NCBI RefSeq assembly: GCF_000011465.1
Contig: NC_005072.1
Coordinates: forward strand, 1,350,001-1,382,000
Reading direction: 5' to 3'
DNA: 32,000 nucleotides
DNA from: Prochlorococcus marinus subsp. pastoris str. CCMP1986
Lineage (GTDB): Bacteria > Cyanobacteriota > Cyanobacteriia > PCC-6307 > Cyanobiaceae
Positions 988-25,854 of the stretch are shown here, in pieces. The number at the start of each line of letters is the position of its first letter. Within the stretch, counting starts at the first letter, position 1. The translations under genes were made by a program, and so were the position numbers. Below the pieces are notes generated by a model. That model worked only from the letters and a program-made list of their open reading frames with translations, was not told where the DNA came from and searched no databases.

Positions 988-1143
988 AATCTTAATCTTT
1001 ACTTTTACTTAACTAATTGTTAACAATAGGTCGAAAATATTAATTTGTCAGCTAGTCACATTACCTATTTGGATGACTTAAGTATGATAAATACTCCTGG
1101 AACAATTACGAACAATTGGAGATAAGAGAAATAATCGTTTCAA

Positions 1144-1515
1144 TTAAAATTTAAGTTTTGTTTTTACTCTATTTTTATTTTCAGAATTAAATTTAAAAAG
1201 TCCCGAGTCAGTAAATATAGTCAATTCATCGCCATATGATTCCTGGATAGATAAACCTTCATCAGAATCTAAATTTTTAACAAATACATTTCCGACTAGT
1301 TTTAAAGTTCTCGCATCTTTGTCGTAAGTAAGCTTATTTGAGGAGGCTTCAAAATTATTCTTATTACTTTTGATAACTACATTTCCAATAGCTTCAAAAC
1401 TCCCTTTTACGTTTTGTATCTGAGAATCAGAGGTAACTGTATAATTCAGCTTCTCTTTTGCAAATGAAATTTCAGTTAAAAGTAATAGTAGCGGGGCAAA
1501 TAGTAAGCGTTTCAT
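1144..1515 (-). CDS. secreted protein with the shared MKRLL leader; weak OstA/LptA-like repeat pattern
   Basis: Starts with ATGAAACGCTTACT. Signal peptide is MKRLLFAPLLLLLTEISFA. The mature part has recurring GNVVI / GNVFV strands reminiscent of the OstA/LptA fold (weak, from memory). Confidence 0.8.
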   Translation of the reverse strand: MKRLLFAPLLLLLTEISFAKEKLNYTVTSDSQIQNVKGSFEAIGNVVIKSNKNNFEASSNKLTYDKDARTLKLVGNVFVKNLDSDEGLSIQESYGDELTIFTDSGLFKFNSENKNRVKTKLKF

Positions 1516-1803
1516 TTATGGATCAAGCTTCGTTGTTAGTTGGCAAAAAGTAGCATTATTATTTTTGAGACATTTATTGTATTTTGTCTGTAAAACTTTT
1601 TGTGCTTCTTTCTTTATGCAAAGATCCAAGTAATTTTTTGCAAATTGAGTCATCCCAATTTCGTTATATTCTGCATATTTCAAACCTGGTCTTTTGCATT
1701 GAGAGACTATTTGTTTGTAAGTAGGTTCTTTATGAAAAAGATTTGCTTTAACAGCAGTAGGTAAAGCGACAACAGCTAAAAGTGGGAGTAGTAAGCGTTT
1801 CAT
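1516..1803 (-). CDS. secreted Cys-containing small protein with the shared leader (95 aa)
   Basis: Starts with ATGAAACGCTTACT. Signal peptide is MKRLLLPLLAVVALPTAVKA. Its stop codon directly abuts the ATG of the next ORF. Confidence 0.8.
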   Translation of the reverse strand: MKRLLLPLLAVVALPTAVKANLFHKEPTYKQIVSQCKRPGLKYAEYNEIGMTQFAKNYLDLCIKKEAQKVLQTKYNKCLKNNNATFCQLTTKLDP

Positions 1804-2031
1804 TCAATCTTCTGCATCTTCAAATTCTCTTAGCAAACGAAAAGTTTTGGAAATAAAAGGAAAGATCCAAACAAACAAACCTACTACTGTTATCAAAGCG
1901 ACAAGAAAACCCAAAATTGCTAAGAATCCACCAGTTGCATCTCCTTCGTAAAAGCGATCAAGTCCAATTGGAGCACCAACTCCTAAAAGGAAGAGTCTTG
2001 TTAAAGTTTGTTTTTCTTTTTTTCTCAACAT
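1804..2031 (-). CDS. TM2-domain membrane protein (75 aa)
   Basis: The GAPIGLDRFYEGD motif followed by a second hydrophobic helix matches the TM2 domain pattern (G..G.h+FY.G). Its stop TGA abuts the next ATG. Confidence 0.75.
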   Translation of the reverse strand: MLRKKEKQTLTRLFLLGVGAPIGLDRFYEGDATGGFLAILGFLVALITVVGLFVWIFPFISKTFRLLREFEDAED

Positions 2032-2040
2032 AAATAATGT

Positions 2041-2086
2041 AAAAAGAGGGTTTTACCCCTCTAATATAGATTAACTGTCAATCAAT
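2041..2086 (-). repeat. diverged copy of the ATTGACAGTCGATCTAAAAT boundary element, plus hairpin and T-tract
   Basis: The minus strand reads ATTGATTGACAGTTAATCTATATT, then hairpin AGAGGGGTAAAACCCTCT, then TTTTT. It sits between the stop of 2091..2411 and the ATG at 2031. Confidence 0.7.
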
Positions 2087-2090
2087 TAAA

Positions 2091-2411
2091 TTATCCCATC
2101 GCTGCGACTTCATCAGCAAGTTGCTTATTTCTTAGAATAACTTCTTCATCATTAAAAACAGGAAGTACATTCCATTCCACTCCAAATTTTGCTCTCCAGA
2201 TACCAAAATGTTCAGCCATTTTGAGATGATTGTCAGCCTTGCAAGTCACAAAAACTTCTCCAGTTTGAGGAGCATGGACTCTACTTATCAATTCAAATCC
2301 ATCAAATTTATCCTTAGGTGCTCCAGAAGCAATATATTTTTCAAAGAGTTTGTAACCTTCTGATTGAGAAAGAGTATCTGGGATAATTCCATGAACGTGA
2401 TAGTAAGCCAT
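2091..2411 (-). CDS. small conserved protein, paralog of 5592..5930 (DUF3303-like, family name from memory)
   Basis: Track ORF 2091..2438 starts at TTG; the likely ATG is at 2411 (MAYYHVHG...). It aligns with 5592..5930: F.GF....R.HA......V...A......M.EHF..W..KF......PV..D.E. Confidence 0.8.
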   Translation of the reverse strand: MAYYHVHGIIPDTLSQSEGYKLFEKYIASGAPKDKFDGFELISRVHAPQTGEVFVTCKADNHLKMAEHFGIWRAKFGVEWNVLPVFNDEEVILRNKQLADEVAAMG

Positions 2412-2480
2412 AACTAAAATTGGATAGTGTAATTTCAATCTAAAAACGATAATTTAAAAAGAATTTAATTTATCTTTAAA

Positions 2481-2500
2481 TTTAGATCGACTGTCAATCG
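2481..2500 (-). repeat. boundary element core copy
   Basis: The minus strand reads CGATTGACAGTCGATCTAAA and contains the exact 16-mer TTGACAGTCGATCTAA. Confidence 0.85.
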
Positions 2501-2510
2501 TATTTAATTT

Positions 2511-2534
2511 AGCTGCAAGTAGTAAGCGTTTCAT
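2511..2534 (-). pseudogene. orphan signal-peptide leader (ATGAAACGCTTACTACTTGCAGCT) with no gene body
   Basis: A perfect 14-mer ATGAAACGCTTACT abuts the TAA of ORF 2535..3047. The reading frame runs straight into the boundary element and dies (MKRLLLAAKLNTIDSRSKF...). Confidence 0.6.
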
Positions 2535-3047
2535 TTAAAAATCATAAGTGACTTTATCGCATTTTTTCTTTCGATATATTTTCTGCATTTCTTTTTGTTC
2601 TGATAAATAATCTTCTTTTGCTTGTTTATTAATTGGATCATATTTGGCTTTAAATTCTTCTTTGATAGCTTGAGCATTTTGTCTTCTTTCTTCTGCCATG
2701 AAATCAAAATCACCATCACTATAATTTCCACTTTTTAAGGTAGTTTCAAACAAATAACATTCATTAGATAAAGCAATATCAAATTCTTTTAGTAAGAAAT
2801 ATTCAGTACAAAAGCTTGCTAATTTATAAGGACTATTATAAAAGTCTCTCCAATTTATATCTATTCCATAAACTTCAGCAATTTTTTCATTAGTAAATTC
2901 TTTGCTTTGTTTTACAAATAATATTTTTTGCTGATAATCATCTTTTGATTGATTTATTGCAAATTGAAGGTCTTTGCATAGTCTTACTTTATCGTTTCCA
3001 AAACCAACTATAAGTGGGAAAACAATAAATAAAACTAAGCGTTTCAT
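2535..3047 (-). CDS. secreted hypothetical protein (170 aa) with a leader variant
   Basis: Starts with ATGAAACGCTTAGT, one mismatch from the shared 14-mer. Signal peptide is MKRLVLFIVFPLIVGFG. Track ORF 2531..2731 is an out-of-frame shadow. Confidence 0.8.
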   Translation of the reverse strand: MKRLVLFIVFPLIVGFGNDKVRLCKDLQFAINQSKDDYQQKILFVKQSKEFTNEKIAEVYGIDINWRDFYNSPYKLASFCTEYFLLKEFDIALSNECYLFETTLKSGNYSDGDFDFMAEERRQNAQAIKEEFKAKYDPINKQAKEDYLSEQKEMQKIYRKKKCDKVTYDF

Positions 3048-3278
3048 TTAATCTTTGACTTTTTGGTCTAATAATTCTTTTAATTCCTTTGGGAAGTTTA
3101 AAAAAGAATCTTTTAAATTTTCATTCTTTTCTCCTATATGTAGTATCCACTCTCTAAATTCTTCTGCTATTGCATAACTGTCTTCATATTTTTCTAGGGT
3201 ATCCATAACAGAAATTCTGTTAGTAGCCCAACAAGTCGCAATATCAATCCTTTTTTTTTGTTTAGTATTTACTGCCAA
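3048..3278 (-). CDS. hypothetical small acidic protein (start uncertain)
   Basis: Track ORF with a TTG start that overlaps the end of the upstream micro-ORF by 10 nt. An internal ATG (MDTLEKYED...) is an alternative start. Confidence 0.55.
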   Translation of the reverse strand: MAVNTKQKKRIDIATCWATNRISVMDTLEKYEDSYAIAEEFREWILHIGEKNENLKDSFLNFPKELKELLDQKVKD

Positions 3279-3433
3279 AACTCATCTAATGCATCAAACA
3301 CTCTGTTGAGATAATCGTTTGCTCCTATACATTCCCATTTTCCCTTTTCACCAATCGCACATTTGTAGTGCAGTTCTCTCTTGAGCTGCATTAGTTTATT
3401 TGTCATCGCAACCTTGTCTAGTCTTCCGTTCAT
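3269..3433 (-). CDS. hypothetical 54-aa protein, not in the ORF track
   Basis: Hand translation gives MNGRLDKVAMTNKLMQLKRELHYKCAIGEKGKWECIGANDYLNRVFDALDEFWQ*. Its ATG overlaps the TGA of the upstream ORF (ATGA). Confidence 0.5.
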   Translation of the reverse strand: MNGRLDKVAMTNKLMQLKRELHYKCAIGEKGKWECIGANDYLNRVFDALDEFWQ

Positions 3434-3606
3434 AGTAAGTCTTCCGCTTCCGTCAATATTTGATTCTTTAAAAAAACAAGCGCGTCTAGTTTTTCTTCTT
3501 TTTCTTCATAATTTTCAAATTTCATTTCTGCAATTTCAACAATTGCTTTATTTATATTTTTAAGCCGTTTCTTAATAACTCTTTTTGGGGTTTTGGTTGA
3601 TTCCAT
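3430..3606 (-). CDS. hypothetical lysine-rich small protein
   Basis: Track ORF 3430..3663 starts at GTG; the first ATG is at 3606 (MESTKTPKRVIKK...). Its stop is coupled to the next ORF through an ATGA overlap. Confidence 0.5.
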   Translation of the reverse strand: MESTKTPKRVIKKRLKNINKAIVEIAEMKFENYEEKEEKLDALVFLKNQILTEAEDLL

Positions 3607-3731
3607 CGGAATTACTTTTTTCTTTATATTCGCTTTCTTTTCTTCAAAATGCGAGCCCCACACTTTAAATTCTGGTTAAATTTTCTACATAATGTCTTTA
3701 AGAATATAGTTTCTGCTCTTTTAATTTTAAT

Positions 3732-3764
3732 TTAATCAATAGATTTAAGTGGTGAGCTTTTCAT
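3732..3764 (-). pseudogene. degenerate orphan leader (ATGAAAAGCTCACCACTT...)
   Basis: Its ATG abuts the TAA of ORF 3765..3932, giving the same stop|ATGAAA architecture. It is only 10 codons long (MKSSPLKSID*). Confidence 0.35.
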
Positions 3765-3932
3765 TTAAAAGGTAATATTTTCTTCTTCAAGTTTTTTCTT
3801 TAGTTCTAGTGGCATATGAGCAATATCTTTTTTAATTGCATCTAAAGCATCATTATACTTTTCAGGATCAGATAAAAGCGTTTTTATCAAGTTATATTGA
3901 CTTTCTATTTCCTGAGAGGAAAATTTACTCAT
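3765..3932 (-). CDS. hypothetical 55-aa protein, not in the ORF track
   Basis: Hand translation gives MSKFSSQEIESQYNLIKTLLSDPEKYNDALDAIKKDIAHMPLELKKKLEEENITF*. It lies 25 nt downstream of a boundary-element copy. Confidence 0.5.
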   Translation of the reverse strand: MSKFSSQEIESQYNLIKTLLSDPEKYNDALDAIKKDIAHMPLELKKKLEEENITF

Positions 3933-3956
3933 TTTTAAAAACTTATTACTTTTTTT

Positions 3957-3978
3957 ATTTTAGATTGACTGTCAATTT
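3957..3978 (-). repeat. boundary element core copy
   Basis: The minus strand reads AAATTGACAGTCAATCTAAAAT, one mismatch from the consensus core. Confidence 0.8.
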
Positions 3979-4029
3979 AATCTGTCTTTAAATATCAACT
4001 CCTAAAATGAATTTAATTTTTAAATTAAT

Positions 4030-4287
4030 TTGGTTTACTTTAAGAAAGAGTTTATTAAATCCCTTAAATTAAAAGGCTCTATATTTTTAATTGTGGTAAT
4101 TATTGGATTTATTTACTCAAGTCCAAAATCAAGGGTAATTATTGCAAATTCTTTGACTTCTTCCGCTAAATTTTTAAACGAAACTGTAGAAACAACAAAT
4201 AAGGATATTTGGTTTTCTGAACCTGATTTCATTTTTAGTATTAGGTTAAAATTACGAGAATTATTGAGAGGAACTCAAAGAGGTTGA
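4030..4287 (+). CDS. doubtful ORF (85 aa, TTG start) with one TM segment
   Basis: It is the only long frame in this interval. It shows weak similarity (SPKSRVIIANSL..FL vs KPISRIYIADYL..FL) to 11905..12117. It runs against the local minus-strand gene direction, and its 3' end overlaps a minus-oriented boundary element. Confidence 0.3.
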   Translation: MVYFKKEFIKSLKLKGSIFLIVVIIGFIYSSPKSRVIIANSLTSSAKFLNETVETTNKDIWFSEPDFIFSIRLKLRELLRGTQRG

Positions 4288-4288
4288 G

Positions 4289-4328
4289 AAGGAGCTAATT
4301 ACCCCTTATTTTAGATCGACTGTCAATC
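4289..4328 (-). repeat. boundary element with hairpin
   Basis: The minus strand reads GATTGACAGTCGATCTAAAATAAGGGGTAATTAGCTCCTT. It starts 3 nt after the stop of micro-ORF 4331..4444. Confidence 0.85.
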
Positions 4329-4330
4329 TA

Positions 4331-4444
4331 TTAATAATTAATTAATTTTTTATTTTCATCTGTTTTATTTACTTTTAACCCAATAAACAATACCCATATA
4401 ACTGCAAAAACTATTGGCAAGAAAACGATAGCAAGCCTCATCAT
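4331..4444 (-). CDS. hypothetical 37-aa membrane micro-protein, not in the ORF track
   Basis: Hand translation gives MMRLAIVFLPIVFAVIWVLFIGLKVNKTDENKKLINY*, with a single hydrophobic helix. Confidence 0.4.
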   Translation of the reverse strand: MMRLAIVFLPIVFAVIWVLFIGLKVNKTDENKKLINY

Positions 4445-4550
4445 TTTTTAATCCTATTATTTGCTAAAAATAATACCGTTTAAATAAATAATTAAAACTA
4501 GGTACTTTACCTATTTCTGGATGACTTCCTATTAGGGAGAGAAGCAAAAA

Positions 4551-4610
4551 CCACCAATCACTTTCCTAAATAGGAACTTTGATGGATAGTAAATTTATAC
4601 CCAAAAAGTT
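4551..4610 (+). repeat. orphan 5' module (leader plus first codons) of the 16747..17064 gene family
   Basis: About 92% identical over ~60 nt to 7073..7134: CCACCAATCACTTTCCTAAATAGGAACTTTGATGGATAGTAAATTTATACCCAAAAAGTT. It includes the family start ATGGATA (4582). No gene body follows, and the cupin gene starts 70 nt later. Confidence 0.6.
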
Positions 4611-4681
4611 AAATTTAGTACTGACAAATATTTTAAAAATTAATAATATAAGCCTAAATAATTTTCTAGGAATTCAAATTG

Positions 4682-5110
4682 ATGATTAAAAATTTATTCA
4701 TAGCAATAGCCTTTGCTTTAATGCTCATTAACCCAAGTATTTCTATAGCTGCAGAATCTCCTGTAGATGTACAAGAAATCTTTGTAGGTTCTGAAACTAT
4801 GGATGGTGATTCTCTTAAATATCCAAAAGGAAAAGCAGAAATAAGATTACAAAGAGTCGAGTTAGCTGAGGGAGGGGTAGTCCCACTCCACTCTCATCCA
4901 ATTCCATTATTAGGTAATGTTGAGCAAGGTACGATTGTTGTCAAAAGACAAGGAATGGAAGATCTTACCTATACAGCAGGGGATACTTTTATAGTTGGTC
5001 CAAAGACACCAAAACATACAATGGGTAATGCAAAAACTGATAACGCAGTAGTTTGGTTCGCAGCAATAGGTGCAAAAGATGTTCCAATACTAATTCCCGC
5101 AGAAGGATAA
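4682..5110 (+). CDS. secreted cupin-domain protein
   Basis: Signal peptide is MIKNLFIAIAFALMLINPSISIAA. GGVVPLHSHP...G....GD matches the cupin_2 metal-binding motifs. The track ORF starts one codon earlier, at TTG 4679. Confidence 0.85.
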   Translation: MIKNLFIAIAFALMLINPSISIAAESPVDVQEIFVGSETMDGDSLKYPKGKAEIRLQRVELAEGGVVPLHSHPIPLLGNVEQGTIVVKRQGMEDLTYTAGDTFIVGPKTPKHTMGNAKTDNAVVWFAAIGAKDVPILIPAEG

Positions 5111-5133
5111 TTTCAACTTTAAATCAATTATTT

Positions 5134-5181
5134 TTGATTGATAGTCAAACTATAATGAGGAGCAATTAGCTCCTTTTTTTT
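5134..5181 (+). repeat. diverged boundary element with a perfect hairpin and T8 directly before an ATG
   Basis: Sequence is TTGATTGATAGTCAAACTATAATGA, then GGAGC-AATTA-GCTCC, then TTTTTTTT, then the ATG at 5182. Confidence 0.75.
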
Positions 5182-5490
5182 ATGACTGCTCAAAATTTTA
5201 TGAATGTTGTTCGATTTAAATTAAAGTCAGATTGTGTAGATAAGTATTTTGAAGTAATAGATAAAACAAGTTTTGAGGGGATGACTCAAAGATATATCGC
5301 TAAAACTGGAGTTTATGATTACTGTTTTGTTGGGATCTGGAAAAGTGTAGAAGCTATTGCAGCTCAAAGACCAGCTATGATTGCTCACCTTGATGAGGTT
5401 AGAGGATTTATGGAAGAGTTGTCTCCTGAACTTGGAGTTACTGATCCTGTTTCAGGAAATATTGTTTCTAAAGTTGGTTATCATGATTAA
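5182..5490 (+). CDS. hypothetical 102-aa protein, possibly ABM/Dabb-like ferredoxin fold
   Basis: Track ORF with an ATG start. The fold guess rests only on size and the pattern V.F.LK...........G...........W.S.EA. Confidence 0.75.
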   Translation: MTAQNFMNVVRFKLKSDCVDKYFEVIDKTSFEGMTQRYIAKTGVYDYCFVGIWKSVEAIAAQRPAMIAHLDEVRGFMEELSPELGVTDPVSGNIVSKVGYHD

Positions 5491-5506
5491 TAGTCGATTT
5501 TAAAAG
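5486..5506 (+). repeat. degenerate boundary element copy
   Basis: GATTAATAGTCGATTTTAAAAG compared with GATTGACAGTCGATCTAAAAT. It overlaps the stop codon of 5182..5490. Confidence 0.45.
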
Positions 5507-5591
5507 TTCCATAGTCCAAGTATTCAATTCAAGATCCTTAACTCAATTTTAAATAACATATCCTAGAAATAATTTTAGATTTATTAATTAA

Positions 5592-5930
5592 ATGAATACT
5601 TATTTTGTAACTGCAACTTTTAAAAATGTTGCTCTCATGGGTGCAGCTTATGACCTGTTTTTAAAGGTTATTGAAGACGGAACTTTGAATGATGAGTTTG
5701 AAGGATTTAAAGTTATGGGAAGATATCATGCCTCTTACTCAAATAATGTATATATTATTGTCCAAGCTTCAACAGGTATAAAAATGACAGAACACTTCGC
5801 TCCTTGGAAGGTCAAGTTTGATATAGATTTTGATATCAAGCCAGTTATGACTGACGATGAAAAAGTTGCTGAGCATAAGCTTGTTGGTTCATTAATGGCA
5901 GCAGAAAAGAAAATGGGATTTTCAGGGTAA
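5592..5930 (+). CDS. small conserved protein, paralog of 2091..2411 (DUF3303-like, family name from memory)
   Basis: Track ORF. It aligns along its whole length with the minus-strand ORF 2091..2411. Confidence 0.85.
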   Translation: MNTYFVTATFKNVALMGAAYDLFLKVIEDGTLNDEFEGFKVMGRYHASYSNNVYIIVQASTGIKMTEHFAPWKVKFDIDFDIKPVMTDDEKVAEHKLVGSLMAAEKKMGFSG

Positions 5931-6006
5931 TTATTTTTTAGAGATTTAGATTATGAATATATAATCCTATCTTGAAAGAGACTTGGGAAATAGCATGCAG
6001 AAAAGA

Positions 6007-6975
6007 ATGAAACGCTTACTACTTCCACTACTAGCTGCTCTCGCTATAAATTCTCAACCTGTTCTTACGAATGAAGATAGAGCTAACTTTTCAGAGGCTG
6101 AAATAATTAAAGTAAATAATAAAAATATAGAAGTAATTAAATTTAAAGTGCCTGATAAGAAGTTTCCAGATAGAAATGATGTTTTAGCTCAAATTCATTT
6201 TCCAAAATATTACAAGAATAAAAAATTATCCCTAATTATTCACCAACATGGAAGTAATAGAGATGGTTTAAGGTTCGAGAAATGGGGAGGTAGAACAGAC
6301 GAATGGGGGAGAAGGTTAGTAGAAAAAGCTTTAGAAAGAGGTTATGCGGTAGCTTTGCTTGATTCTTTTTATAAAAGAAAGTTAAAACCTTCAGATAAAG
6401 GAAAGTTTCCAAACGGTATTTTGATTAGTGAAAAACTTAACTCGATACTATCTAAGGATGAAAGATTTGATAAATCAAAAATTTTTTACTCTGGTTTTAG
6501 TTATGGTGCAAGTCAAGTATTGAAGCTTCAAGACAAAAGGGCAAACAGCGATTTATTTAAAGCAGCAGTGGCAGCAGAACCTGGATGTAACAAAGTTTCT
6601 TTTCCATTCAAATCTAATATAAAAACTTTAATAATTAAAGGTGAGGACAGCCATTATAACCCCATCGCATGCGAATATTATTATAATCTTGTTAAAGAAA
6701 CGGGAAATCAAATTGAATATGTATCTATACCGAAAGTAAATCATTTCTTCAGCTTAAACGGATCAATTGGAAAAGGAATAGCAGTTAATGGATGCTCAGA
6801 AAATATAGTAATACAATATCCAGATCGGACATTCAAACTTGCAGATGGAACATCAATCAATAAAGAAGAAGCTCAAAGAAGGTGTTTAACAAAGGAGTCG
6901 GGTGAAGGTACGACAAGAGAGAAATTGGATGAAGCAATAAATATATCGCTTAATTATTTTGATAAGTACAAATAA
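6007..6975 (+). CDS. secreted alpha/beta hydrolase (dienelactone-hydrolase/esterase-like) with the shared leader
   Basis: The ATGAAACGCTTACT start at 6007 gives MKRLLLPLLAALA; the track ORF begins earlier, at TTG 5983. It has a nucleophile elbow GFSYG (GxSxG) and an HQHGS oxyanion-type motif. Confidence 0.85.
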   Translation: MKRLLLPLLAALAINSQPVLTNEDRANFSEAEIIKVNNKNIEVIKFKVPDKKFPDRNDVLAQIHFPKYYKNKKLSLIIHQHGSNRDGLRFEKWGGRTDEWGRRLVEKALERGYAVALLDSFYKRKLKPSDKGKFPNGILISEKLNSILSKDERFDKSKIFYSGFSYGASQVLKLQDKRANSDLFKAAVAAEPGCNKVSFPFKSNIKTLIIKGEDSHYNPIACEYYYNLVKETGNQIEYVSIPKVNHFFSLNGSIGKGIAVNGCSENIVIQYPDRTFKLADGTSINKEEAQRRCLTKESGEGTTREKLDEAINISLNYFDKYK

Positions 6976-7065
6976 AAAGCTTGTTACTTGCCTATCTATT
7001 TTTGTTGTCACCTTTTTGACATGAATTTATTGATCCCATATCAATACAGAAAGGATCTAAATTAA

Positions 7066-7276
7066 CCCCATACCACCCATCACTTTCCTAAATAAGAACT
7101 TTGATGGATAATAAATTTATAACCGAAAAAGTTTGGATAACACTTCCTCCAAGCTTCAAAAATCACCAAGGTCCCCTAATATAACTGAAGAAAAGTTTTG
7201 GTTAATGAACCTTGAGAGAGACAAGCTTGAGAGGTAGGACGGAAGCGTTTGCTTCGGTAAATCAAAATATAAATAA
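7066..7276 (+). pseudogene. decayed paralog of 16747..17064, including its 5' module
   Basis: The leader CCCCATACCACCCATCAC plus ATGGATA (7104) matches 16686..16750. Positions 7208..7249 match 16852..16892 (AACCTT.AGAGAGACAAGCTTGAGAGGT...GGAAGCGTT) but carry an indel and in-frame TAA/TAG stops (..NHQGPLI*, ..WLMNLERDKLER*). Confidence 0.6.
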
Positions 7277-7390
7277 GCTCTAAATTAAATAATATTAATA
7301 GTACTTTAGAGCTAAAAATAGAATCTTTAATTAATAATATTACTATCAATCTAGGAACCTATAAATGCAAATAAGTTCTTAAGCTAATTG

Positions 7391-7424
7391 TTATATAGTA
7401 ATCTAGGTTATATAGTAATCTATA
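7391..7424. repeat. tandem direct repeat, 2 x 17 bp
   Basis: TTATATAGTAATCTA occurs perfectly at 7391-7405 and 7408-7422. Confidence 0.85.
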
Positions 7425-7445
7425 TAATATAAATAATTACTTTCT

Positions 7446-7514
7446 AAGAGTATAAATGTTTACACAGTAAGAGTATAAGTATTTAAATAGAAAGAGTATA
7501 AGTGTATACATAGA
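7446..7514. repeat. tandem direct repeat, 3 x 23 bp (iteron-like)
   Basis: The three units are contiguous: AAGAGTATAAATGTTTACACAGT, AAGAGTATAAGTATTTAAATAGA and AAGAGTATAAGTGTATACATAGA. Confidence 0.85.
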
Positions 7515-7643
7515 AATGGTTTATAGCTTTTTCATTTTATTTTTTTTAGTATATTAATAAAAAAAATCTATATGTCAATTTATTTTTTCAAAAATTTACT
7601 AACGTATCTTTATTTACTAATGCTAATCAAAATTTATAAATTA

Positions 7644-7681
7644 CTTAAATTTAATTTAACCCTAATACAAAATCCTTAATC
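7644..7681 (+). promoter_or_regulatory. possible Pho-box-like direct repeats (weak)
   Basis: CTTAAATT-taa-TTTAACCC-taa-TACAAAAT shows 8-mers at 11-bp phasing, followed by CCTTAATC. It resembles the cyanobacterial PhoB box PyTTAAPyPy(T/A) repeated every 11 bp. Only two units are good matches. Confidence 0.2.
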
Positions 7682-7702
7682 AGTGACAAGCAAATTGTCA
7701 CT
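7682..7702. promoter_or_regulatory. perfect inverted repeat AGTGACA-N7-TGTCACT upstream of the 694-aa gene
   Basis: Perfect 7-bp arms lie 33-53 nt upstream of the ATG at 7735. They are followed by a -10-like TATAGAAT sequence. Confidence 0.45.
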
Positions 7703-7734
7703 AGAACTAATTTATAGAATTTGCAAATTACAAA

Positions 7735-9819
7735 ATGAAAAGAAAACTCTTTTCTGCGATATTAACAGGCACGATGCTAGTAGCTCCTGCCAGTACTCTT
7801 GCAGAAACAAAACGTATTGGTGAGACCAGAGCTCTAATTCCTGAAGCAGGTCTTGCTTTGAACCCAGTCTTAGATGGTGGTAACGGAAACGTTGACTTCC
7901 CATTTGGAAACTTTAAAGCACTCGCTACTGTTGGTGAAGTAGGAGACAACGGACTTGCACTGACTGGATATCCAGATGGACAGGCAGCATATCTGCTTGA
8001 TAACGATACTATTCGAGTTGTTTATCAGTCCGAATCTTATGCGACCATGGGTAAAGCACCAGTCCCTGAGACTTATAACTGGGAAATGAAAAATGGTGTA
8101 ACTTTCTCTGGTTCTCACATTCACACGATTGATTATGATCGTGCAAAATTTGCTAAATTCATGAAAAATGGTTCTTCTGCAGAAGGAATGGTCAAGGATT
8201 CTGGTAAATTATTCAACACAATCTACAACGTATTTGGTGATGAAGTAACGAAGGAGAATTTAGTCTGGGGTAACCAAGCACTTCCCAGTCAACGCGTTGT
8301 TCCTTTCCTAGATAAATACAAACTTTCTGAAGCCGACTTCTTCCTACAGTCCTTTTGTGGTGCATGGTATGAACAAGCAAATAAATATGGTAATGGTATA
8401 GGGCTTGAGGATGATGTATGGCTTACTGCTGAAGAGTGGGAAATCGGTCGTATGTTCACTGGCTCTAAGAAGACTGGTAGAACAGAATCTGATAAAACGA
8501 TGGGTCTTGCATCAATAGCTGTTGATGTTAAGAACGAAGTTGCCTACACTGCACCTGCTTTAGGTCAGACTGGTTATGAAAAACTAATGCCAATCAACCC
8601 TCAACACAAAGACTATGTTGTTATCGTTGGTGCTGGTTATAATCACAATCAAGAACCTGCTCCTCTTAAGGTTTATGTCGGCATGAAGGATCGTCTTCCT
8701 GATGGTTCTGAGATTGATTACTCTACTGCTAATGAGCGCGATGCCTTCCTTGGACGAAATGGCATGCTCTACGGTCGCATCTACGGATTTGCAATGCCTA
8801 CCAAATCTTATGCTTCACTAGGTCTTGAAGCGAACCCTGCCGCAAAGATGATGGATGAGTATCTTCAGAATGCTGATGCACCTAACTCCTTTGAGGGTCG
8901 TTTCTATCCTACTTCCTATCAGTGGGGTGGCTGGGATAATCCAGTCTCAGTAAACAATACTGAGATGATGTTGTGGGAGCAAGCAGGTGAACAACCTGAG
9001 GGTTACACCTTCTTCAACGGAGATTCAAAAGCAGAACATCCTGCAGTAGATCCTGATATCAACCGTACTCGTTATGTTCAGAACATGACTAACAAAGGTG
9101 GGATTCTTGGTTTCGATTTTGGTTTCATTGGAGCCACTCTAGACGCTGCTGATGGCGATCTACCTGAATTCCTTCCTGCTACTGGTATTCGTGTTGTTCC
9201 TGCCATTGATGGTGCTCTTACTCTCAAGACTGGTGGTGAAGGTGTTGTGAAGGATGGCTCTGCCGCAATTCACGTTGAGAAAAATAAGGCAGCAATGGTT
9301 TCTCCAGATGGCCTTTATTGGACTAAACACGCTGATGGTTCTTACCTTATCGTTGATGAGGATTCTGGAAACGACTTTGGAGAACGTAAGTATGTCCTAC
9401 CCATCAAAGAGTCAGATATGACTCTTAGTGAACCGAACACTGGCTACCTATTAGGTCTTGCTGGTGGTAAGCACTCCTCACGTTATGAAGCAGGTGCATC
9501 TGCTCTTGGTGGTGCATTTTCCAAAGCAACTACTTCTGAGTTCTCTGGTTCTTGGAACGTAACTGCTCTGACAACTAAGAAGTCAAATGGTTTATTCGGA
9601 AGCAAATTCTACTCTATGGATGAACTTGCAGGAACTGGTGAACAAGAGATCATTCAGGGTATTGACACTGATGATCAACTCTTTATCGGTGTTGTTCAAG
9701 CCCGTGGTGAGTCAGGTGGTGCAGTTGCTGAAGAAGGTGGTGATGCTGGTGGACAAGTCTTCCAATTCACTTTTAACTTGCCTGAAAAATCAGAGGGAGA
9801 GAATATTGCTCAGTTCTGA
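7735..9819 (+). CDS. secreted PhoX/DUF839-like beta-propeller protein (putative phosphatase), 694 aa
   Basis: Signal peptide is MKRKLFSAILTGTMLVAPASTLA. Three motifs resemble PhoX family landmarks (recalled, not searched): GYPDGQAAY, SFCGAW...DDVWLTAEEWE and SPDG....DGSYLIVDEDSG. The gene is clearly richer in G+C than its neighbours. Four overlapping track ORFs are shadows. Confidence 0.9.
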   Translation: MKRKLFSAILTGTMLVAPASTLAETKRIGETRALIPEAGLALNPVLDGGNGNVDFPFGNFKALATVGEVGDNGLALTGYPDGQAAYLLDNDTIRVVYQSESYATMGKAPVPETYNWEMKNGVTFSGSHIHTIDYDRAKFAKFMKNGSSAEGMVKDSGKLFNTIYNVFGDEVTKENLVWGNQALPSQRVVPFLDKYKLSEADFFLQSFCGAWYEQANKYGNGIGLEDDVWLTAEEWEIGRMFTGSKKTGRTESDKTMGLASIAVDVKNEVAYTAPALGQTGYEKLMPINPQHKDYVVIVGAGYNHNQEPAPLKVYVGMKDRLPDGSEIDYSTANERDAFLGRNGMLYGRIYGFAMPTKSYASLGLEANPAAKMMDEYLQNADAPNSFEGRFYPTSYQWGGWDNPVSVNNTEMMLWEQAGEQPEGYTFFNGDSKAEHPAVDPDINRTRYVQNMTNKGGILGFDFGFIGATLDAADGDLPEFLPATGIRVVPAIDGALTLKTGGEGVVKDGSAAIHVEKNKAAMVSPDGLYWTKHADGSYLIVDEDSGNDFGERKYVLPIKESDMTLSEPNTGYLLGLAGGKHSSRYEAGASALGGAFSKATTSEFSGSWNVTALTTKKSNGLFGSKFYSMDELAGTGEQEIIQGIDTDDQLFIGVVQARGESGGAVAEEGGDAGGQVFQFTFNLPEKSEGENIAQF

Positions 9820-9862
9820 TTTTAAAACTAAATTAAGCAAATAAAAATTGCGACTTTATAAG

Positions 9863-9903
9863 ACCTATAAACTCATTAATTTAGTGAGTTTATAGGTTTT
9901 TTA
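9863..9903 (+). terminator. rho-independent terminator of the 694-aa gene
   Basis: 13-bp stem ACCTATAAACTCA (9863-9875) / TGAGTTTATAGGT (9885-9897), followed by a T-run. Confidence 0.85.
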
Positions 9904-10009
9904 TATTTCAAACCTAAGTTTTTATATCTTTGCAATCTCATAAATGGTTAATAAGCTGTTCGTATATGAGGATATGATTATTAGGAAAATAATCCAAGTA
10001 ACAGTCGAT

Positions 10010-10168
10010 TTACTGTAATGGATAATTTAAATAAGCATATTTGTACATTTTCCTATAATCATCATGCAATCTTTCAGTTGCTAACTTTCTATTTTCCATT
10101 CCATCTCTAATCAAATCCATTTCATGGAAGTTTTGATTTAGGATTGTGAAAGGAGTAATGAGTTTCAT
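10010..10168 (-). CDS. 52-aa micro-protein, family member A, not in the ORF track
   Basis: Hand translation gives MKLITPFTILNQNFHEMDLIRDGMENRKLATERLHDDYRKMYKYAYLNYPLQ*. A GGAGG lies 4 nt upstream of the ATG. The N-terminus is homologous to the 14193..14333 product (P[FY]TI[LI]...F....D[IL]..G). Confidence 0.5.
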   Translation of the reverse strand: MKLITPFTILNQNFHEMDLIRDGMENRKLATERLHDDYRKMYKYAYLNYPLQ

Positions 10169-10283
10169 AAAACCTCCTGTATCTACACCTTTATTGTCCT
10201 CCTATTGTTATTAAATTAATAGAGCGGTTTGAGGAACAATTAGGTACGGGAAGAGGACTAAATTTTCGACTAGATTGTTAAAT
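10169..10283 (-). promoter_or_regulatory. conserved leader of micro-protein family, copy A
   Basis: The core at 10225..10283 is about 85% identical to 14403..14461 over its first ~45 nt; the distal ~15 nt aligns only with a gap. The proximal AGGTGTAG..AGGAGG block is also shared. The transcribed (minus) strand is pyrimidine-rich (GTCCTCTTCCCGTAC..GTTCCTCAAACCG). Confidence 0.45.
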
Positions 10284-10430
10284 TGATTGGAGTAGTTTCT
10301 GACGCTTCTACTGCTTTCTTTCATTTTGCTATTTTTCTCTATTGCCATGTTCCTTAATGTTGTTAGTTTGTGACATAAGGTAATCCAGAAACAATTAGTT
10401 TGTTTGATGAATAAGCCTGGAATTAATTTC

Positions 10431-10814
10431 ATGAGAAGCTTATTAGTAATGTTTCTAATAATAAGTTTTTCTTCAAAAGCATATTCAGCTCTACCAACCA
10501 CAATCATCAAAAGTTGCTACGACGGGGATACCTGCACAACCATTGATGGAGAGAAAATAAGACTTGCTTGTATTGATACGCCAGAATTAAAAGGTAAAAA
10601 AGCTGATCCTGTTGCGGCTAGAGAAGCAAGAGATTTTTTGAATAATTTAGTTACCAATGAAGAGGTTTCTATTAGGAGAATTACTAAAGATAAATATGAG
10701 AGAACAGTAGCTGAATTATTTAAAAATGATACTAACGTTCAAGAACTAATTGTTGATGATAGTTATGGGAAAATCTATGAAAGGTATGCATATCAATGTA
10801 ATTGGACTCAATAA
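10431..10814 (+). CDS. secreted thermonuclease (staphylococcal nuclease/SNase family)
   Basis: The pattern GDT....G..IRLACIDTPE......DP.....A..FL......V.......DKY.R.VAE........ELI.....G..YERY is the classical SNase pattern. Signal peptide MRSLLVMFLIISFSSKAYS runs from the ATG at 10431. Alternative starts are at 10404 and 10407. Confidence 0.85.
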   Translation: MRSLLVMFLIISFSSKAYSALPTTIIKSCYDGDTCTTIDGEKIRLACIDTPELKGKKADPVAAREARDFLNNLVTNEEVSIRRITKDKYERTVAELFKNDTNVQELIVDDSYGKIYERYAYQCNWTQ

Positions 10815-11025
10815 AGATTCTGCACCCTAGAAATCTTATCCCCATAGCCAAAAAGCTCTTCGAATATATGGTTTTAGCTGCCAACCCCAGAATCCATATC
10901 CAAAGACAAGGAATTGAGGGAAAAAACGAATTAACAGTAAAATAATTCCTCCTCTACCTCTCGCTTTCGTTGAAATCCTTGCTGCATCACTTGAATCAAA
11001 GTTTTATACAGTAGATACAGATTTG

Positions 11026-11424
11026 ATGACAGATGAAACAAAAATAAGATTTTATATTGAGAGTGAAACCCAAGTCCAAGACTCAATAGGAGGAAGAGAT
11101 ACGATTAATCTTTGGGTTAGATGTAACAATAGTTATCCACAAATCTTTTTTACAACTCCTACCTATAACGCTGACAATACTAGAGTTGGTGTTAGATGGG
11201 ATAAAGATAAAGCATCTTTCTACAACTGGAATAAGTCAACAGATAGCCAAGCTTTTTTTCATCCAAGACCTAAAGAATTTGCTCAAAAACTGAAAGAAAA
11301 AAGTTTTTTAACAGTTCAGTGGAGCCCATACAGCAGTTCAAGTCGTACGGCAAAGTTTGATTTAAATTCTCAAGAATTTAGAGAAGATATTTCAAAAGCC
11401 ATAGCAGATGGGTGTAATTTTTAA
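11026..11424 (+). CDS. hypothetical protein (132 aa)
   Basis: Track ORF with the ATG at 11026. Its TAA directly abuts an orphan ATGAAACGCTTACT leader. Confidence 0.7.
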   Translation: MTDETKIRFYIESETQVQDSIGGRDTINLWVRCNNSYPQIFFTTPTYNADNTRVGVRWDKDKASFYNWNKSTDSQAFFHPRPKEFAQKLKEKSFLTVQWSPYSSSSRTAKFDLNSQEFREDISKAIADGCNF

Positions 11425-11466
11425 ATGAAACGCTTACTACTTGCACCGCTAATAGTTAGTAATTGA
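11425..11466 (+). pseudogene. orphan signal-peptide leader (13 codons) running into a boundary element
   Basis: ATGAAACGCTTACTACTTGCACCGCTAATAGTTAGTAATTGA encodes MKRLLLAPLIVSN*. The stop lies inside the ATTGACAG core. Confidence 0.6.
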
Positions 11467-11503
11467 CAGTCGATCTAAAATAAGGGGCAATTAGCTTCTT
11501 TTT
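11461..11503 (+). repeat. boundary element with hairpin and T-tract directly before an ATG
   Basis: Sequence is AATTGACAGTCGATCTAAAATAA, then GGGGC-AATTA-GCTTC, then TTTTT, then the ATG at 11504. Confidence 0.85.
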
Positions 11504-11908
11504 ATGGAAAAATTTTCCCAGAATCTTCTTAGGCTTTCTCTTTCAATATTATTTTTAAGTTTTCCTATTGGTTTTTTATTCGCAGGGATTGAATATATAA
11601 ACACCAAAAAGTTTTTAACAACAAAATATGATGAATTAAATGAAAAGACAGAAGACTATATAGAGGATATGGAAGAAACTTATCCTGAAACTATAAAATA
11701 TTTTCCTTCAACTAAATTGGCAGATAAATCTCCTCTTGCAACATTACTTTTAACAAAATCAACTATGAAATTATTTCAAGTTTCCGAATATCTAAAATAT
11801 AAAAATTCAATTTTGGATACTACTGACGAGATATCAAAGACTGTTGATGCTTTTATAGAAGAATTAAGAATTGAATATCCCGAATTAAATAGAATACTTC
11901 CTAGATGA
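11504..11908 (+). CDS. hypothetical membrane-anchored protein (134 aa)
   Basis: Track ORF with an N-terminal hydrophobic segment. Its TGA overlaps the next ATG (ATGA). Confidence 0.7.
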   Translation: MEKFSQNLLRLSLSILFLSFPIGFLFAGIEYINTKKFLTTKYDELNEKTEDYIEDMEETYPETIKYFPSTKLADKSPLATLLLTKSTMKLFQVSEYLKYKNSILDTTDEISKTVDAFIEELRIEYPELNRILPR

Positions 11909-12117
11909 AACGCTTACTCTTAGCTGAGCTTTTGTTAGTTTTAATTACTCTAATTTTTGTTTCTCTAAAACCAATTTCTAGAATTTATATTGCTGATTAT
12001 TTGGAAAAGATATCCTTATTTTTATTTAGAACAGTAAGCGATGAAGATTTAAATAAGTGGTATGAGAAAAGAGATAAGTATGAATTACTTGAGGAATCAG
12101 GAGGAACTGCTTACTAA
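11905..12117 (+). CDS. small protein with the shared leader used as a TM anchor (70 aa)
   Basis: Starts with ATGAAACGCTTACT (MKRLLLAELLLVLITLIFV). Its stop TAA lies inside the next boundary element. Confidence 0.7.
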   Translation: MKRLLLAELLLVLITLIFVSLKPISRIYIADYLEKISLFLFRTVSDEDLNKWYEKRDKYELLEESGGTAY

Positions 12118-12136
12118 TTGACAGTCGATCTAAAAT
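12116..12136 (+). repeat. boundary element core copy
   Basis: AATTGACAGTCGATCTAAAAT is identical to 11461..11481. Confidence 0.85.
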
Positions 12137-12258
12137 ATTGGCAAATGGCGATTAAATATTAAGAAAATGCCAACTAGAGAAAAACTTGAAGGAAAACAAA
12201 TTAATAAACGGCTGCTTAAGCATTGCCTATGCATAGTTGTCGGTACTTTAGGTTAAAG

Positions 12259-12519
12259 CTAAGAATTTTTTTGTAATAATCTAATGCCAGATATTACAGA
12301 GATTATCGATGCAATACCAAGAAATATCGAATAAAAAGGCTGCAAATTAATAATGCCAAAATTACCTGTATGCCATTTGATCAACCAAAAAGCATCAACT
12401 CCTAATGGTTGAAGAAAACTATAGATAGTCCCAGATATAAGAGTAATTAATAAAGGTATTGAAGAAATTGCAGCTACTTTTCTGTGTATTTTTCTTTTAT
12501 TTGATTTCAAATTTTTCAT
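12259..12519 (-). CDS. small two-TM membrane protein (86 aa), possibly PepSY-TM-like
   Basis: Track ORF. Its ATG abuts the TAA of the upstream ORF (TAAATG). The family guess is weak. Confidence 0.65.
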   Translation of the reverse strand: MKNLKSNKRKIHRKVAAISSIPLLITLISGTIYSFLQPLGVDAFWLIKWHTGNFGIINLQPFYSIFLGIASIISVISGIRLLQKNS

Positions 12520-15185: not shown

Positions 15186-16526
15186 TTGAGAAGGTTTCTA
15201 CTCCCATTACTAGCTGCTCTCGCTCTACCTACTACTGTTAATGCAGCTAAAATTAACTGTAATTCTCCTGTTTGGAAAAATAAACCGCAATGCAAAAATG
15301 AATCTGTAAGAAAAAAGGTAAAAACAATACTTGATGAAGAAACAGGTTTAATGGTTATAGAAATGGAAGCAGATATACCTTGGAGATCGACATCTAATCC
15401 AAAAATTCCTTATAAAAATATAGTTAAGCTTACGTCGAGCTTTGACGGAAGTTCGGAATATGTTGTTTTTGATAGAGACTACATAAGAGGTGCATTTAGT
15501 AGATTTACTGTTTTAACTAAATGGAGTTCAGATTATTTAAGTGCAACATATTTTTTAGAAAATGATTGTTCCTATGTTTTTAATACATGTTTTGGTGGTA
15601 TTTCTGATTCTGGTGAATTAGATTCTCCAATTGAATTAAAATTCAATAACCGAAATTACACATTATATGGAGAGGATGGTCAATTCTCATTACCCAATGA
15701 TTTTATTGAACAAGTAAAAAATACAAGATCATATACCGGGCTCTCGGTAAGAGGTAACAATAGAATTATTCCTATCGGAGAAGTTACTGTTGAGAAATTA
15801 TCTGAGTTGTATAAAAAAGTTTTAAAAAAATGGACAATACCAGAAATTAACTTCAAAGCTAAAAATATAAAATTAAAACCATCAATTAAAGAGATAGCAG
15901 GAAATACACTTCCAAAAGTTGTGACTGTAAGGTCAAGCAGAGGTCAAGGTACGGGCTTTTTTATAAATGATGAGGGTTTACTAATTACAAATAGACATGT
16001 AATTGGCGCTGGAAAAAAAATTGATATCCAAATAGAAACTGCTACTGGATCAGAATTAACTGCGAAAACCATTTATGTAAGTAGAAAAGATGACTTTGCA
16101 ATTCTTAAGGTTCAAGGGGAGATTTTTCCCGAGGCTCTTCCAATTTGTTATGCAACCTATCCTACTGCTGGAGAAGAAGTAATAGCTATTGGTTCACCGA
16201 GGGGATTAACAAATACAATTACTAGAGGAATTGTAAGTGCATTTAGGAGATCAGGAAATTATTCAGAGGGTTTTGCTACAACTGGCACCTCATTAATACA
16301 AACTGATGCTGCAATAAATCCAGGTAATAGTGGTGGTCCTTTATTAAATGAGAATGGAGAAGTTATTGGTATAAATACTTTCGGAGCAACCTCATCTGGT
16401 GGGTCTCAAGGTTTAAATTTTGCTGTTTCAATGATTGATGTACTTCAGCAATTAAATGTTAGAAAACCTGATCTAAAAAATATAAATGAATCATCTATAA
16501 ATGAATGTGGAAATATTAAATTGTGA
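15186..16526 (+). CDS. secreted trypsin-like serine protease (S1C/DegP-type catalytic domain, no PDZ) with a novel ~240-aa N-terminal domain
   Basis: TTG start. The leader MRRFLLPLLAALALPTTVNA shares CTAGCTGCTCTCGCT with the 6007 leader. The catalytic triad contexts are ITNRHV, DFAILKV and TDAAINPGNSGGPLLN. Confidence 0.9.
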   Translation: MRRFLLPLLAALALPTTVNAAKINCNSPVWKNKPQCKNESVRKKVKTILDEETGLMVIEMEADIPWRSTSNPKIPYKNIVKLTSSFDGSSEYVVFDRDYIRGAFSRFTVLTKWSSDYLSATYFLENDCSYVFNTCFGGISDSGELDSPIELKFNNRNYTLYGEDGQFSLPNDFIEQVKNTRSYTGLSVRGNNRIIPIGEVTVEKLSELYKKVLKKWTIPEINFKAKNIKLKPSIKEIAGNTLPKVVTVRSSRGQGTGFFINDEGLLITNRHVIGAGKKIDIQIETATGSELTAKTIYVSRKDDFAILKVQGEIFPEALPICYATYPTAGEEVIAIGSPRGLTNTITRGIVSAFRRSGNYSEGFATTGTSLIQTDAAINPGNSGGPLLNENGEVIGINTFGATSSGGSQGLNFAVSMIDVLQQLNVRKPDLKNINESSINECGNIKL

Positions 16527-21676: not shown

Positions 21677-23299
21677 ATGTCAAAGTTTAGCAGCAAGAAT
21701 ATAAATAAAACAAAAGTTCCTGAGAGTCCAGTGGTTCTAGCAATTCTGGACGGATGGGGACATCGTGAAGAGAATTTAGATAATGCCATAAAAAATGCCA
21801 ATACTCCTATAATGGATTCTTTATGGCACGCTTATCCTCATACTCTTATTAATGCGAGCGGAGCTGATGTAGGTTTACCCAATGGTCAAATGGGTAATTC
21901 CGAAGTAGGGCATCTCACGATTGGATCAGGGAGAATCATTCAACAAGAACTTGTAAGAATTACAAATGTTGTGAAAAACAACCAATTAACTCAAGTAAAT
22001 GAGTTAAAGGAAATGGCTAATTCAATTAAGAAAAAAAAGGGTACCTTACACATAACTGGTCTATGTTCAGATGGAGGGGTTCATAGCCACATTGATCACT
22101 TATTAGGATTAATAAAATGGGCTTCAGAAGAACATATAGAAAAAGTAGCTATTCACATTATTACCGATGGTAGAGATACTCCAGCAAAAAGTGCTTATAA
22201 ATACATAAGACAAATAGAAGATTGCATAAAGAAATTTAAAGTAGGAGAAATAGCATCTATATGCGGAAGATATTGGATAATGGATAGAAATTTAATATGG
22301 GAAAGAACAGAAAAAGCTTTTGTAAATTTAACTGATCCAAATGGCAAAAAAATTGACATTTCCCCTGCAGATTATTTAAATAAAAGTTATAACGCAAATA
22401 TTACAGATGAATTCTTAGAGCCTATAAGAATATCTAAAGACTTTTTAAAAGATGAAGATAGTTTAATTTGTTTTAACTTCCGACCTGATAGGGCCAGACA
22501 AATAATAAAAGCTCTTTCGGAAAAAGAATTTGATAATTTTAAAAGAAAAAGTATCCCTGATGTAGATATATTAACTTTCACTCAATACGAAGCAAATTTA
22601 CCAGTTAAAATAGCTTTTCCTCCTGAGTCTCTCAATAACTTTATTGGCCAAATAGTTTCAGAAAATGGACTTAAGCAATACAGAACAGCAGAGACCGAAA
22701 AATATCCACATGTTACTTATTTTTTTAATGGAGGAGTAGAAGTCCCCTCGCCAGGAGAACAAAGACATTTAATTCCTTCGCCAAGAGTTGCAACTTATGA
22801 TATGGCACCGGAAATGTCTGCCGAAGAATTAACTATTAGTTGCTCAAATGCTATAAAAACTGGACAGTATTCTTTTGTAGTTATAAATTTTGCTAATCCT
22901 GACATGGTTGGACATACAGGTAATATGGCCGCAGCTATAAAGGCCATCGAAACCGTCGATAGATGTATAGGTAAGATAGTAAATGCTACAGGAGAAATGG
23001 GAGGCAGTATTCTTATTACTGCAGATCATGGCAATGCTGAACTGATGAAAGGTCCTGATGGAGAACCCTGGACAGCTCACACTATTAATAAAGTCCCCTT
23101 AATTTTTATTGAAGGTGAGAAAAGAAAAATTCCAAATATGGGAAATGAGATTTATTTGAGAGAAAATGCTGGATTAGCAGATATTGCTCCAACATTATTG
23201 CAATTATTAAATCTTCCTATTCCAAAAGAGATGACAGGAAAATCACTTATTAAAGAAATCGAATTAAAAGGATTTAATAAAGTCGTTCAACATGTTTAA
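21677..23299 (+). CDS. gpmI: 2,3-bisphosphoglycerate-independent phosphoglycerate mutase
   Basis: [39 protein letters not shown] and TADHGNAE are iPGM signatures. Confidence 0.95.
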
Positions 23300-23324
23300 A
23301 TTAGATATATAACAAATACAAAAT

Positions 23325-23549
23325 ATGAGTCAAATATTTACTTGGATATGGGTTAGTTCTGGAATACTACTAATACTTTTAGTTCTACTTCATAGTCCCA
23401 AAGGCGATGGTATGGGAGGAATAGCAGCTAGTGGAAGCTCAATGTTTACTAGCGCCAGCAGCGCTGAAGCATCCCTAAACAAAATAACATGGACCATTTT
23501 AATTATATTTTTATCTCTCGCAATCATTCTTAGTGCAGGTTGGATATAG
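23325..23549 (+). CDS. secG: preprotein translocase subunit SecG
   Basis: 74 aa with two TM helices and LLHSPKGDG between them. It has the typical position after gpmI. Confidence 0.85.
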   Translation: MSQIFTWIWVSSGILLILLVLLHSPKGDGMGGIAASGSSMFTSASSAEASLNKITWTILIIFLSLAIILSAGWI

Positions 23550-23592
23550 AAATATTCAATTTAACTATCTTTAAAATAAATCAATAAATAAG

Positions 23593-23618
23593 AAAGGGAT
23601 TGTCAAAACAATCCCTTT
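23593..23618. terminator. bidirectional terminator hairpin between secG and groEL
   Basis: Perfect 11-bp stem AAAGGGATTGT / ACAATCCCTTT with loop CAAA. On the minus strand a U-rich tail follows (CTTATTTATT). Confidence 0.75.
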
Positions 23619-23639
23619 AAAACTAAAAATTTTAGTTAT

Positions 23640-25301
<1,662 letters not shown>

Positions 25302-25325
25302 TTAATAATTTTTGAAACAAATAAA

Positions 25326-25637: not shown

Positions 25638-25854
25638 AGATTAATGGTGGATCATAAATGCGACGCAATGCGTCAAAAGTCTGGTGAGAGTATTACTCAA
25701 ACCGTATGGTAAATAACATAATCTGTTAAGCAGCAATTAAACCACTCTTTAACTGTGCGGTTGGCCGAACCCAGTTAACGAATATACCCTCGGGATGGTA
25801 ATATTTCGCATTATGAGCTGTTCTAAAATCAGCTAATCCTCACCAAGTCAATAA

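Follow-up and report, generated by a model that had tools for sequence, protein, structure and literature searches.

A Repeated Signal-Peptide Start in a Genomic Island of Prochlorococcus marinus MED4 as a Possible Recombination Joint for Exported Proteins

This study concerns a short repeated gene start, the 14-mer ATGAAACGCTTACT, in 32,000 nucleotides (nt) of the chromosome of Prochlorococcus marinus subsp. pastoris (positions 1,350,001-1,382,000 of contig C1, genome G000, below "the window"; positions are those of the window unless they are given for the genome). MED4 is the host strain, and its genome is a single contig of 1,657,990 bp. The 14-mer appears to form the conserved 5' end of an "export module" (14-60 nt) made up of a start codon and a Sec signal peptide, MKRLLL(PLLAALAL...). 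We propose, with a probability of roughly one half, that this module and a second repeat, here called the 3' element, are recombination joints at which new gene bodies acquire a common start and export signal. Sequence comparison demonstrates the module on non-homologous bodies, two strain breakpoints exactly at a stop/ATG junction, and an HtrA-like body whose native signal peptide has been replaced. Recombination as the mechanism, its frequency, and any adaptive role are what we infer from these comparisons.

Results

The left ~16 kb of the window is a genomic island (a cluster at 1.346-1.362 Mb), and the right half contains housekeeping genes. A first-pass annotation of the window, made from the letters alone, had listed six exact copies of the 14-mer and one copy with a mismatch. 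All seven were recovered at the same places and strands, where shuffled sequence gives an expectation of 0.03 and none of 100 shuffles reached seven.

1502-1515, minus strand: exact copy, start of the P0001 gene, directly behind the TAA of the 95-amino-acid gene
1790-1803, minus strand: exact copy, start of the P0005 gene at the TGA of the 75-amino-acid gene 1804-2031; strain-variable junction
2521-2534, minus strand: exact copy
3034-3047, minus strand: copy with one mismatch, TTAGT
6007, 11425, and 11905, plus strand: exact copies

Genome-wide, nine exact copies are present, seven within the island (genome positions 1,345,981-1,361,918) and the others at 348,632 and 1,080,146. The 14-mer was found in 23 of 40 genomes sampled, spread over Prochlorococcus and concentrated in islands, with almost none outside the genus; the reversed pattern, used as a control, had no match in any genome. 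Degenerate relatives had also been noted. One, at 3751-3764 on the minus strand, reads ATGAAAAGCTCACC behind a TAA, and in the gene starting at 15186, 44 nt of the signal-peptide region are 84% identical to those of the gene at 1516-1803.

Most copies begin immediately behind the stop codon of the preceding gene, with TAA-ATG at 1515, 2534, 3047, and 11425 and TGA-ATG at 1803, and at 11905 start and stop overlap (ATGA), exactly as described in the first-pass annotation. Its statement that every copy is the start of an open reading frame (ORF) is correct for most, but the copies at 11425 and 2521 open stubs of 13 and 26 codons that run into the 3' element.

Codon choice in the 14-mer is unusual. 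As the annotation had pointed out, arginine is encoded by CGC in all copies. CGC accounts for only 1.7% of Arg codons genome-wide. Other genes of the genome that start with MKRLL, core genes included, use different codons. Because CGC is rare, the shared letters of the copies point to common descent and not to convergence. Codon choice is not frozen in all copies, however, as had been claimed: a one-mismatch copy in the G013 ortholog (L071) has a synonymous TTA to CTA change in codon 4, and the module of the HtrA-like gene has changed at 5 of its first 14 nt. These changes also bear on a rival explanation, in which selection at the nucleotide level maintains the 14-mer not as a recombination joint but as an RNA element, either for translation control or as a small RNA or antisense site. 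Such selection could explain why the 14-mer is 100% conserved in the ortholog pairs found while positions 15-30 vary more, but this conservation is ascertainment-biased because the copies were retrieved by the exact 14-mer. The G013 ortholog is free of that bias and has the synonymous change, the HtrA-like module has diverged, core MKRLL genes use other codons, no antisense or small RNA was found, and neither the module nor the 3' element matched a family in an Rfam search. An RNA element is improbable as the explanation, and the annotation's alternative of a common antisense or small RNA target gained no support.

The genes that carry the module or border on it are:

1144-1515, minus strand: LptC/LptA-like exported protein P0001 with module signal peptide (Pfam LptC, 8.1e-5)
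1516-1803, minus strand: 95-amino-acid Cys-containing exported protein P0005 with the full ~60-nt module MKRLLLPLLAVVALPTAVKA
2535-3047, minus strand: 170-amino-acid exported protein P0003, its one-mismatch 14-mer (3034-3047) fused to the TAA of gene X
3048-3278, minus strand: gene X, 76 amino acids
3765-3932, minus strand: 55-amino-acid gene ending in TAA directly followed by ATGAAAAGCTCACC, the degenerate module at 3751-3764
6007-6975, plus strand: S9-peptidase-like exported protein P0002 with module signal peptide MKRLLLPLLAALAINS
11905-12117, plus strand: 70-amino-acid protein P0004 with a hydrophobic N-terminus; its ATG overlaps the TGA of the gene 11504-11908, and a 3' element follows directly at 12118
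15186-16526, plus strand: HtrA-like trypsin-fold protease P0006, its signal peptide being the island module with a diverged 5' end

In translation, most copies open proteins with a Sec-type signal (MKRLL(L), a hydrophobic core, and an AxA-like site). Beyond the leader the proteins are unrelated, as the annotation had said, and belong to non-homologous families (LptC-like, S9-like, trypsin-like, and others). The bodies behind exact or near-exact 14-mers alone are LptC-like, S9-like, and the 95-, 170-, and 70-amino-acid proteins, together with a 49-amino-acid protein at genome position 348,632, so a nucleotide-identical signal-coding 5' module is joined to non-homologous bodies. The 95-amino-acid, S9-like, and HtrA-like genes have a longer common signal-peptide module (~44-60 nt, 84-93% identity); the HtrA-like copy retains the signal-peptide part, while its 5' 14 nt have diverged. 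Homologs of the P0002 body were found in MED4 only, and its ORF has a possible upstream start at 5983 (TTG) or 5995 (ATG).

Strain comparison can reveal whether breakpoints fall exactly at the motif, a check that the annotation had proposed, and two clean cases were found at the stop/ATG junction. The first is gene X. In 14 relatives and in a MED4 paralog, a conserved intergenic region (…CCGCCCTACATTATTTGGG…) comes after the TAA of gene X, whereas at 3048-3278 in the MED4 window the TAA is followed directly by ATGAAACGCTTAGT and the 170-amino-acid gene. The second is the 75-amino-acid gene (1804-2031), which in G005 ends in TAA followed by unrelated DNA and in MED4 ends in TGA fused to the 95-amino-acid module gene. 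The homolog of the 95-amino-acid gene in G013 has a different upstream neighbor.

The HtrA-like protein has orthologs in five strains (G059, G053, G057, G056, and G058; 57-68%), and these have unrelated signal peptides, MNKTIFSILLLF…, MRFKNSIIS…, and MRKFISIVILL…. In MED4 the protein carries the island module LRRFLLPLLAALALPTTVNAA, joined exactly at the mature N-terminus (K)INCNSPV.

LptC-like genes of MED4, G008, and G012 start with the 14-mer; in G008 and G012 the upstream DNA of the module gene is different, and behind the gene lies the same degenerate empty module as in MED4. In five more distant strains (G009, G001, G011, G006, and G004), the orthologs start with MKSLFFASFLFLL (MKSLFFA; ATGAAAAGCTTATT…), and their upstream DNA is conserved. 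Among LptC-like pairs, conservation is lower in nt 15-30 than in the body.

Metagenomic contigs contain further joins at copies of the module or the 3' element. One contig joins 2536 to 6006 with 19 letters that fit either side, and others join 1487/1488 to 2512 with AAACT between and 2062 to 2481. They hint at natural variants. In one study, metatranscriptomic contigs (X1 and X4) match the island (window 1000-12300) at >99% identity. These contigs break at copies of the module and of the 3' element, which repeats would be expected to cause. Metagenome and metatranscriptome contigs inform on presence and joints, and not on strand, start sites, or expression level.

Empty modules are copies of the module without a gene body. 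MED4 has three (at genome position 1,345,981 and at 11425 and 2521 of the window), each consisting of the start, a stub of 10-26 codons, and a stop, followed by the repeated 3' element. The 3' element is made up of ATTGACAGTCGATCTA, which contains the short palindrome TAGATTGAC-AG-TCGATCTA, a predicted intrinsic-terminator hairpin, and a T-run. Empty modules and 3' elements of the window are:

2456-2534, minus strand: empty module with 14-mer and 26-codon stub; 3' element ATTGACAGTCGATCTA at 2479-2498
11425-11503, plus strand: empty module with 14-mer, MKRLLLAPLIVSN stub ending in a stop, and 3' element (palindrome, terminator, T-run); next ATG at 11504
3937-3976, minus strand: 3' element directly upstream of the 55-amino-acid gene 3765-3932
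4289-4345, minus strand: 3' element with palindrome TAGATTGAC-AG-TCGATCTA and hairpin (z = -2.6)
5119-5178, plus strand: 3' element with an intrinsic-terminator-like hairpin (5157-5175), after the cupin gene 4679-5110

The 3' element also occurs behind the stops of full genes (after the 11905-12117 gene and, at 5119-5178, after the cupin gene), and the ATG of the next gene often stands immediately after its T-run. It was found in 25 of 40 genomes sampled, clustered in islands and almost absent beyond Prochlorococcus. RNAalifold found no common structure in 66 aligned copies of the 3' element because the terminator stems differ between subfamilies, and the missing consensus does not speak against hairpins in single copies.

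Empty modules could instead be a mobile repeat of ~90-100 bp, similar to a miniature inverted-repeat transposable element or a repetitive extragenic palindromic (REP) sequence, with a 5' end that encodes MKRLL incidentally and with genes fused to inserted copies. Six relatives do have an empty module as a defined unit at one seemingly orthologous site, behind conserved upstream sequence and a T-run; the unit ends in a terminator and T-run, often with an ATG directly after, and the 3' element alone is REP-like. Against insertion of a mobile repeat, the genome has no transposase or REP-associated tyrosine transposase (RAYT), and many module genes have no 3' element. This origin is rather unlikely. 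Membership in a REP or REPIN (REP doublet hairpin) system with a RAYT was likewise rejected: PF01797 (Y1_Tnp) has no match in the genome, and the 3' element is only a REP-like palindrome with a terminator.

Two further repeats were seen in the island. A 58-nt direct repeat (91% identical) lies at 4550-4607, upstream of the cupin gene, and at 7072-7129, near a 694-amino-acid gene, and may be a second repeated 5' element. A tandem repeat of three copies with a 23-bp period occupies the intergenic region 7428-7519 upstream of the same gene. The 694-amino-acid exported protein (7735-9819, plus strand) has the signal MKRKLFSAIL… and no Pfam match, and G007 is 95% identical over 2.4 kb. The island also has two DUF3303 paralogs (2091-2438, minus strand; 5592-5930, plus strand).

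A 17-mer search of viral contigs gave 17 matches, mostly to phage genes of higher G+C content with MKRLLLL signals. Contigs L074, L078, L082, L089, L079, and L085 of IMG/VR have a recurring phage gene family that starts with MKRLLLLSTLFLINPVSAGVVHKITASAQG…, with the same 17-mer and higher G+C content. Starts with MKRLLL are common elsewhere, so outside Prochlorococcus this sequence by itself has no diagnostic value.

To the right of the island, the following genes (window 21677-30953) were assigned by sequence motif only:

21677-23299, plus strand: gpmI-like mutase
23640-25283, minus strand: GroEL
25326-25637, minus strand: GroES
25858-27318, plus strand: AtpD-like ATP synthase beta
27367-27771, plus strand: AtpC
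28576-29901, minus strand: Xaa-Pro aminopeptidase-like
29976-30953, plus strand: CNNM/CorC-like

Discussion

Recombination at two short repeats, be it RecA-driven and homologous, microhomology-mediated, or site-specific, would account for the organization of this island. The module would be one joint, combined with many unrelated bodies and usually placed right behind an upstream stop (TAA-ATG), which may allow translational coupling. The 3' element, a palindrome with an intrinsic terminator that often follows gene bodies, would be the matching 3' joint. Copies of the module, or copies of the 3' element, would then exchange their flanking segments through deletion, duplication, and junction-specific joining, and new exported proteins would arise with start, export signal, and a context for coupling already in place. 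Units of an empty module and a 3' element may be leftovers of such exchange. The first-pass annotation had suggested that the leader-coding 5' end is a recombination or gene-conversion joint, and that its identity reflects descent or conversion. Descent agrees with the rare CGC codon, and the position of the module at strain-variable junctions with unrelated bodies behind it fits a joint; conversion mosaics, by contrast, were not general in a test of 780 pairs (nt 15-30 against the body), and conversion was dropped as a claim except for the LptC family.

Several observations weigh against recombination joints. The island is compact and its gene bodies abut, so a breakpoint at a stop/start site is expected anyway for every intergenic break, and the breakpoints at the module are two individual cases. 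The joins share only ~5-20 nt of homology, a marginal length for exchange that depends on RecA, and the ORFs of the island encode no recombinase. In the LptC-like family, the change from ATGAAAAGCTTATT to ATGAAACGCTTACT requires 2 nt only and could have arisen by point mutation. The metagenomic joins are each seen in a single contig, and assembly across repeats could have produced them as chimeras. Finally, among the 780 pairs, nt 15-30 tend to be more alike where the bodies are more alike (Spearman 0.28), and most module copies therefore appear to travel with their gene families and not to have been re-converted recently.

That correlation speaks for plain vertical inheritance, in which each gene family has kept a module start of ancient common origin, the bodies were acquired independently or drifted apart, and no exchange is ongoing. 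Same-family pairs also keep the module, for example in the 348632 family. However, the bodies have non-homologous folds (LptC, S9, trypsin), which makes a single paralog origin of the module genes impossible. The different signal peptides on HtrA-like orthologs and the joins exactly at strain-variable stop/ATG sites do not fit either. Vertical inheritance is thus partly refuted, namely for the HtrA-like and gene X cases, and as a general account we regard it as doubtful.

Integrons and clusters of attC sites lacking integron-integrases (CALINs) resemble the island in that short repeated elements bound gene units and that empty, cassette-like units occur. A site-specific cassette array of this kind would explain the repeated 3' element behind gene bodies. 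The island differs in having no IntI nearby, a 3' element without attC R/L boxes or a GTTRRRY core (the next ATG is preceded by the T-run), and module genes in both orientations. For these reasons membership was rejected, and a cassette array is a most improbable explanation. The genome's one tyrosine recombinase, also its only PF00589 match, at G000:C1:495095-495520 (L010, 389 amino acids), lies far from the island, covers the catalytic domain only, and has a below-cutoff NCBIfam match to "site-specific tyrosine recombinase/integron integrase" (XerA_Arch).

Prochlorosin (ProcA, Nif11-leader lanthipeptide) precursors have a conserved N-terminal module on hypervariable C-terminal parts, and their clusters contain recombination-related genes (PMC10783134). 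They also come from marine picocyanobacteria and also join a conserved N-terminus to varying C-terminal parts, but they are short peptides with a modification leader of the Nif11 type, whereas the island module encodes a Sec signal on diverse mature proteins, and nothing in the island implicates ProcM or other lanthipeptide machinery. The module translates as a Sec-type signal and not as a Nif11/N11P leader with GG cleavage, and a prochlorosin-type family was rejected on the leader. A LanC-like search gave no match, but the controls gave none either, so it is uninformative.

Polymorphic toxins combine a modular N-terminal trafficking domain with C-terminal cassettes that are exchanged by recombination (PMC3482391). 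As in the island, a conserved export or trafficking N-terminus is reused on unrelated C-terminal bodies, and "orphan" fragments resemble the empty modules. The common part in the island is a 14-60-nt signal-coding module, however, and not a large domain, and the bodies are enzymes and lipopolysaccharide-transport-like proteins instead of toxins. Membership was rejected on the bodies (LptC-like, S9 peptidase-like, trypsin-like, DUF3303, and unknown), with no immunity-like neighbors recognized.

Cassette conversion in antigenic variation (Borrelia vls, Neisseria pilS/pilE, Anaplasma msp2) is comparable in that conserved flanks permit exchange of variable parts of surface proteins. The island, in contrast, has no single expression site or silent cassette library, each copy has its own start, and exchange would be between strains over evolutionary time. 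The module and 3' element resemble the module-shuffling themes seen in polymorphic toxins, prochlorosin leaders, and cassette conversion but belong to none of them.

Prochlorococcus islands are hypervariable and rich in small exported proteins tied to phage interaction and niche adaptation, and island genes of MED4 are known to vary phage receptors. A far-reaching and rather unlikely extension of recombination joints is a dedicated "export-cassette" system in the islands of high-light-adapted (HL) Prochlorococcus, RecA-dependent or using another pathway, in which swapping, deletion, or fusion of the bodies behind one common start and Sec signal is routine. If it exists, it would give populations a repertoire of new surface and exported proteins, such as varied phage receptors. 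If recombination joints alone are confirmed, many annotated gene starts and small ORFs of the islands would be module copies or empty remnants and not independent genes, which is a warning for annotation. Fusions of bodies to signals would form at predictable sites and could be counted in strain and metagenome comparisons, and recombination at junctions marked by a reusable export module of conserved nucleotide sequence would give new exported proteins a concrete way to arise.

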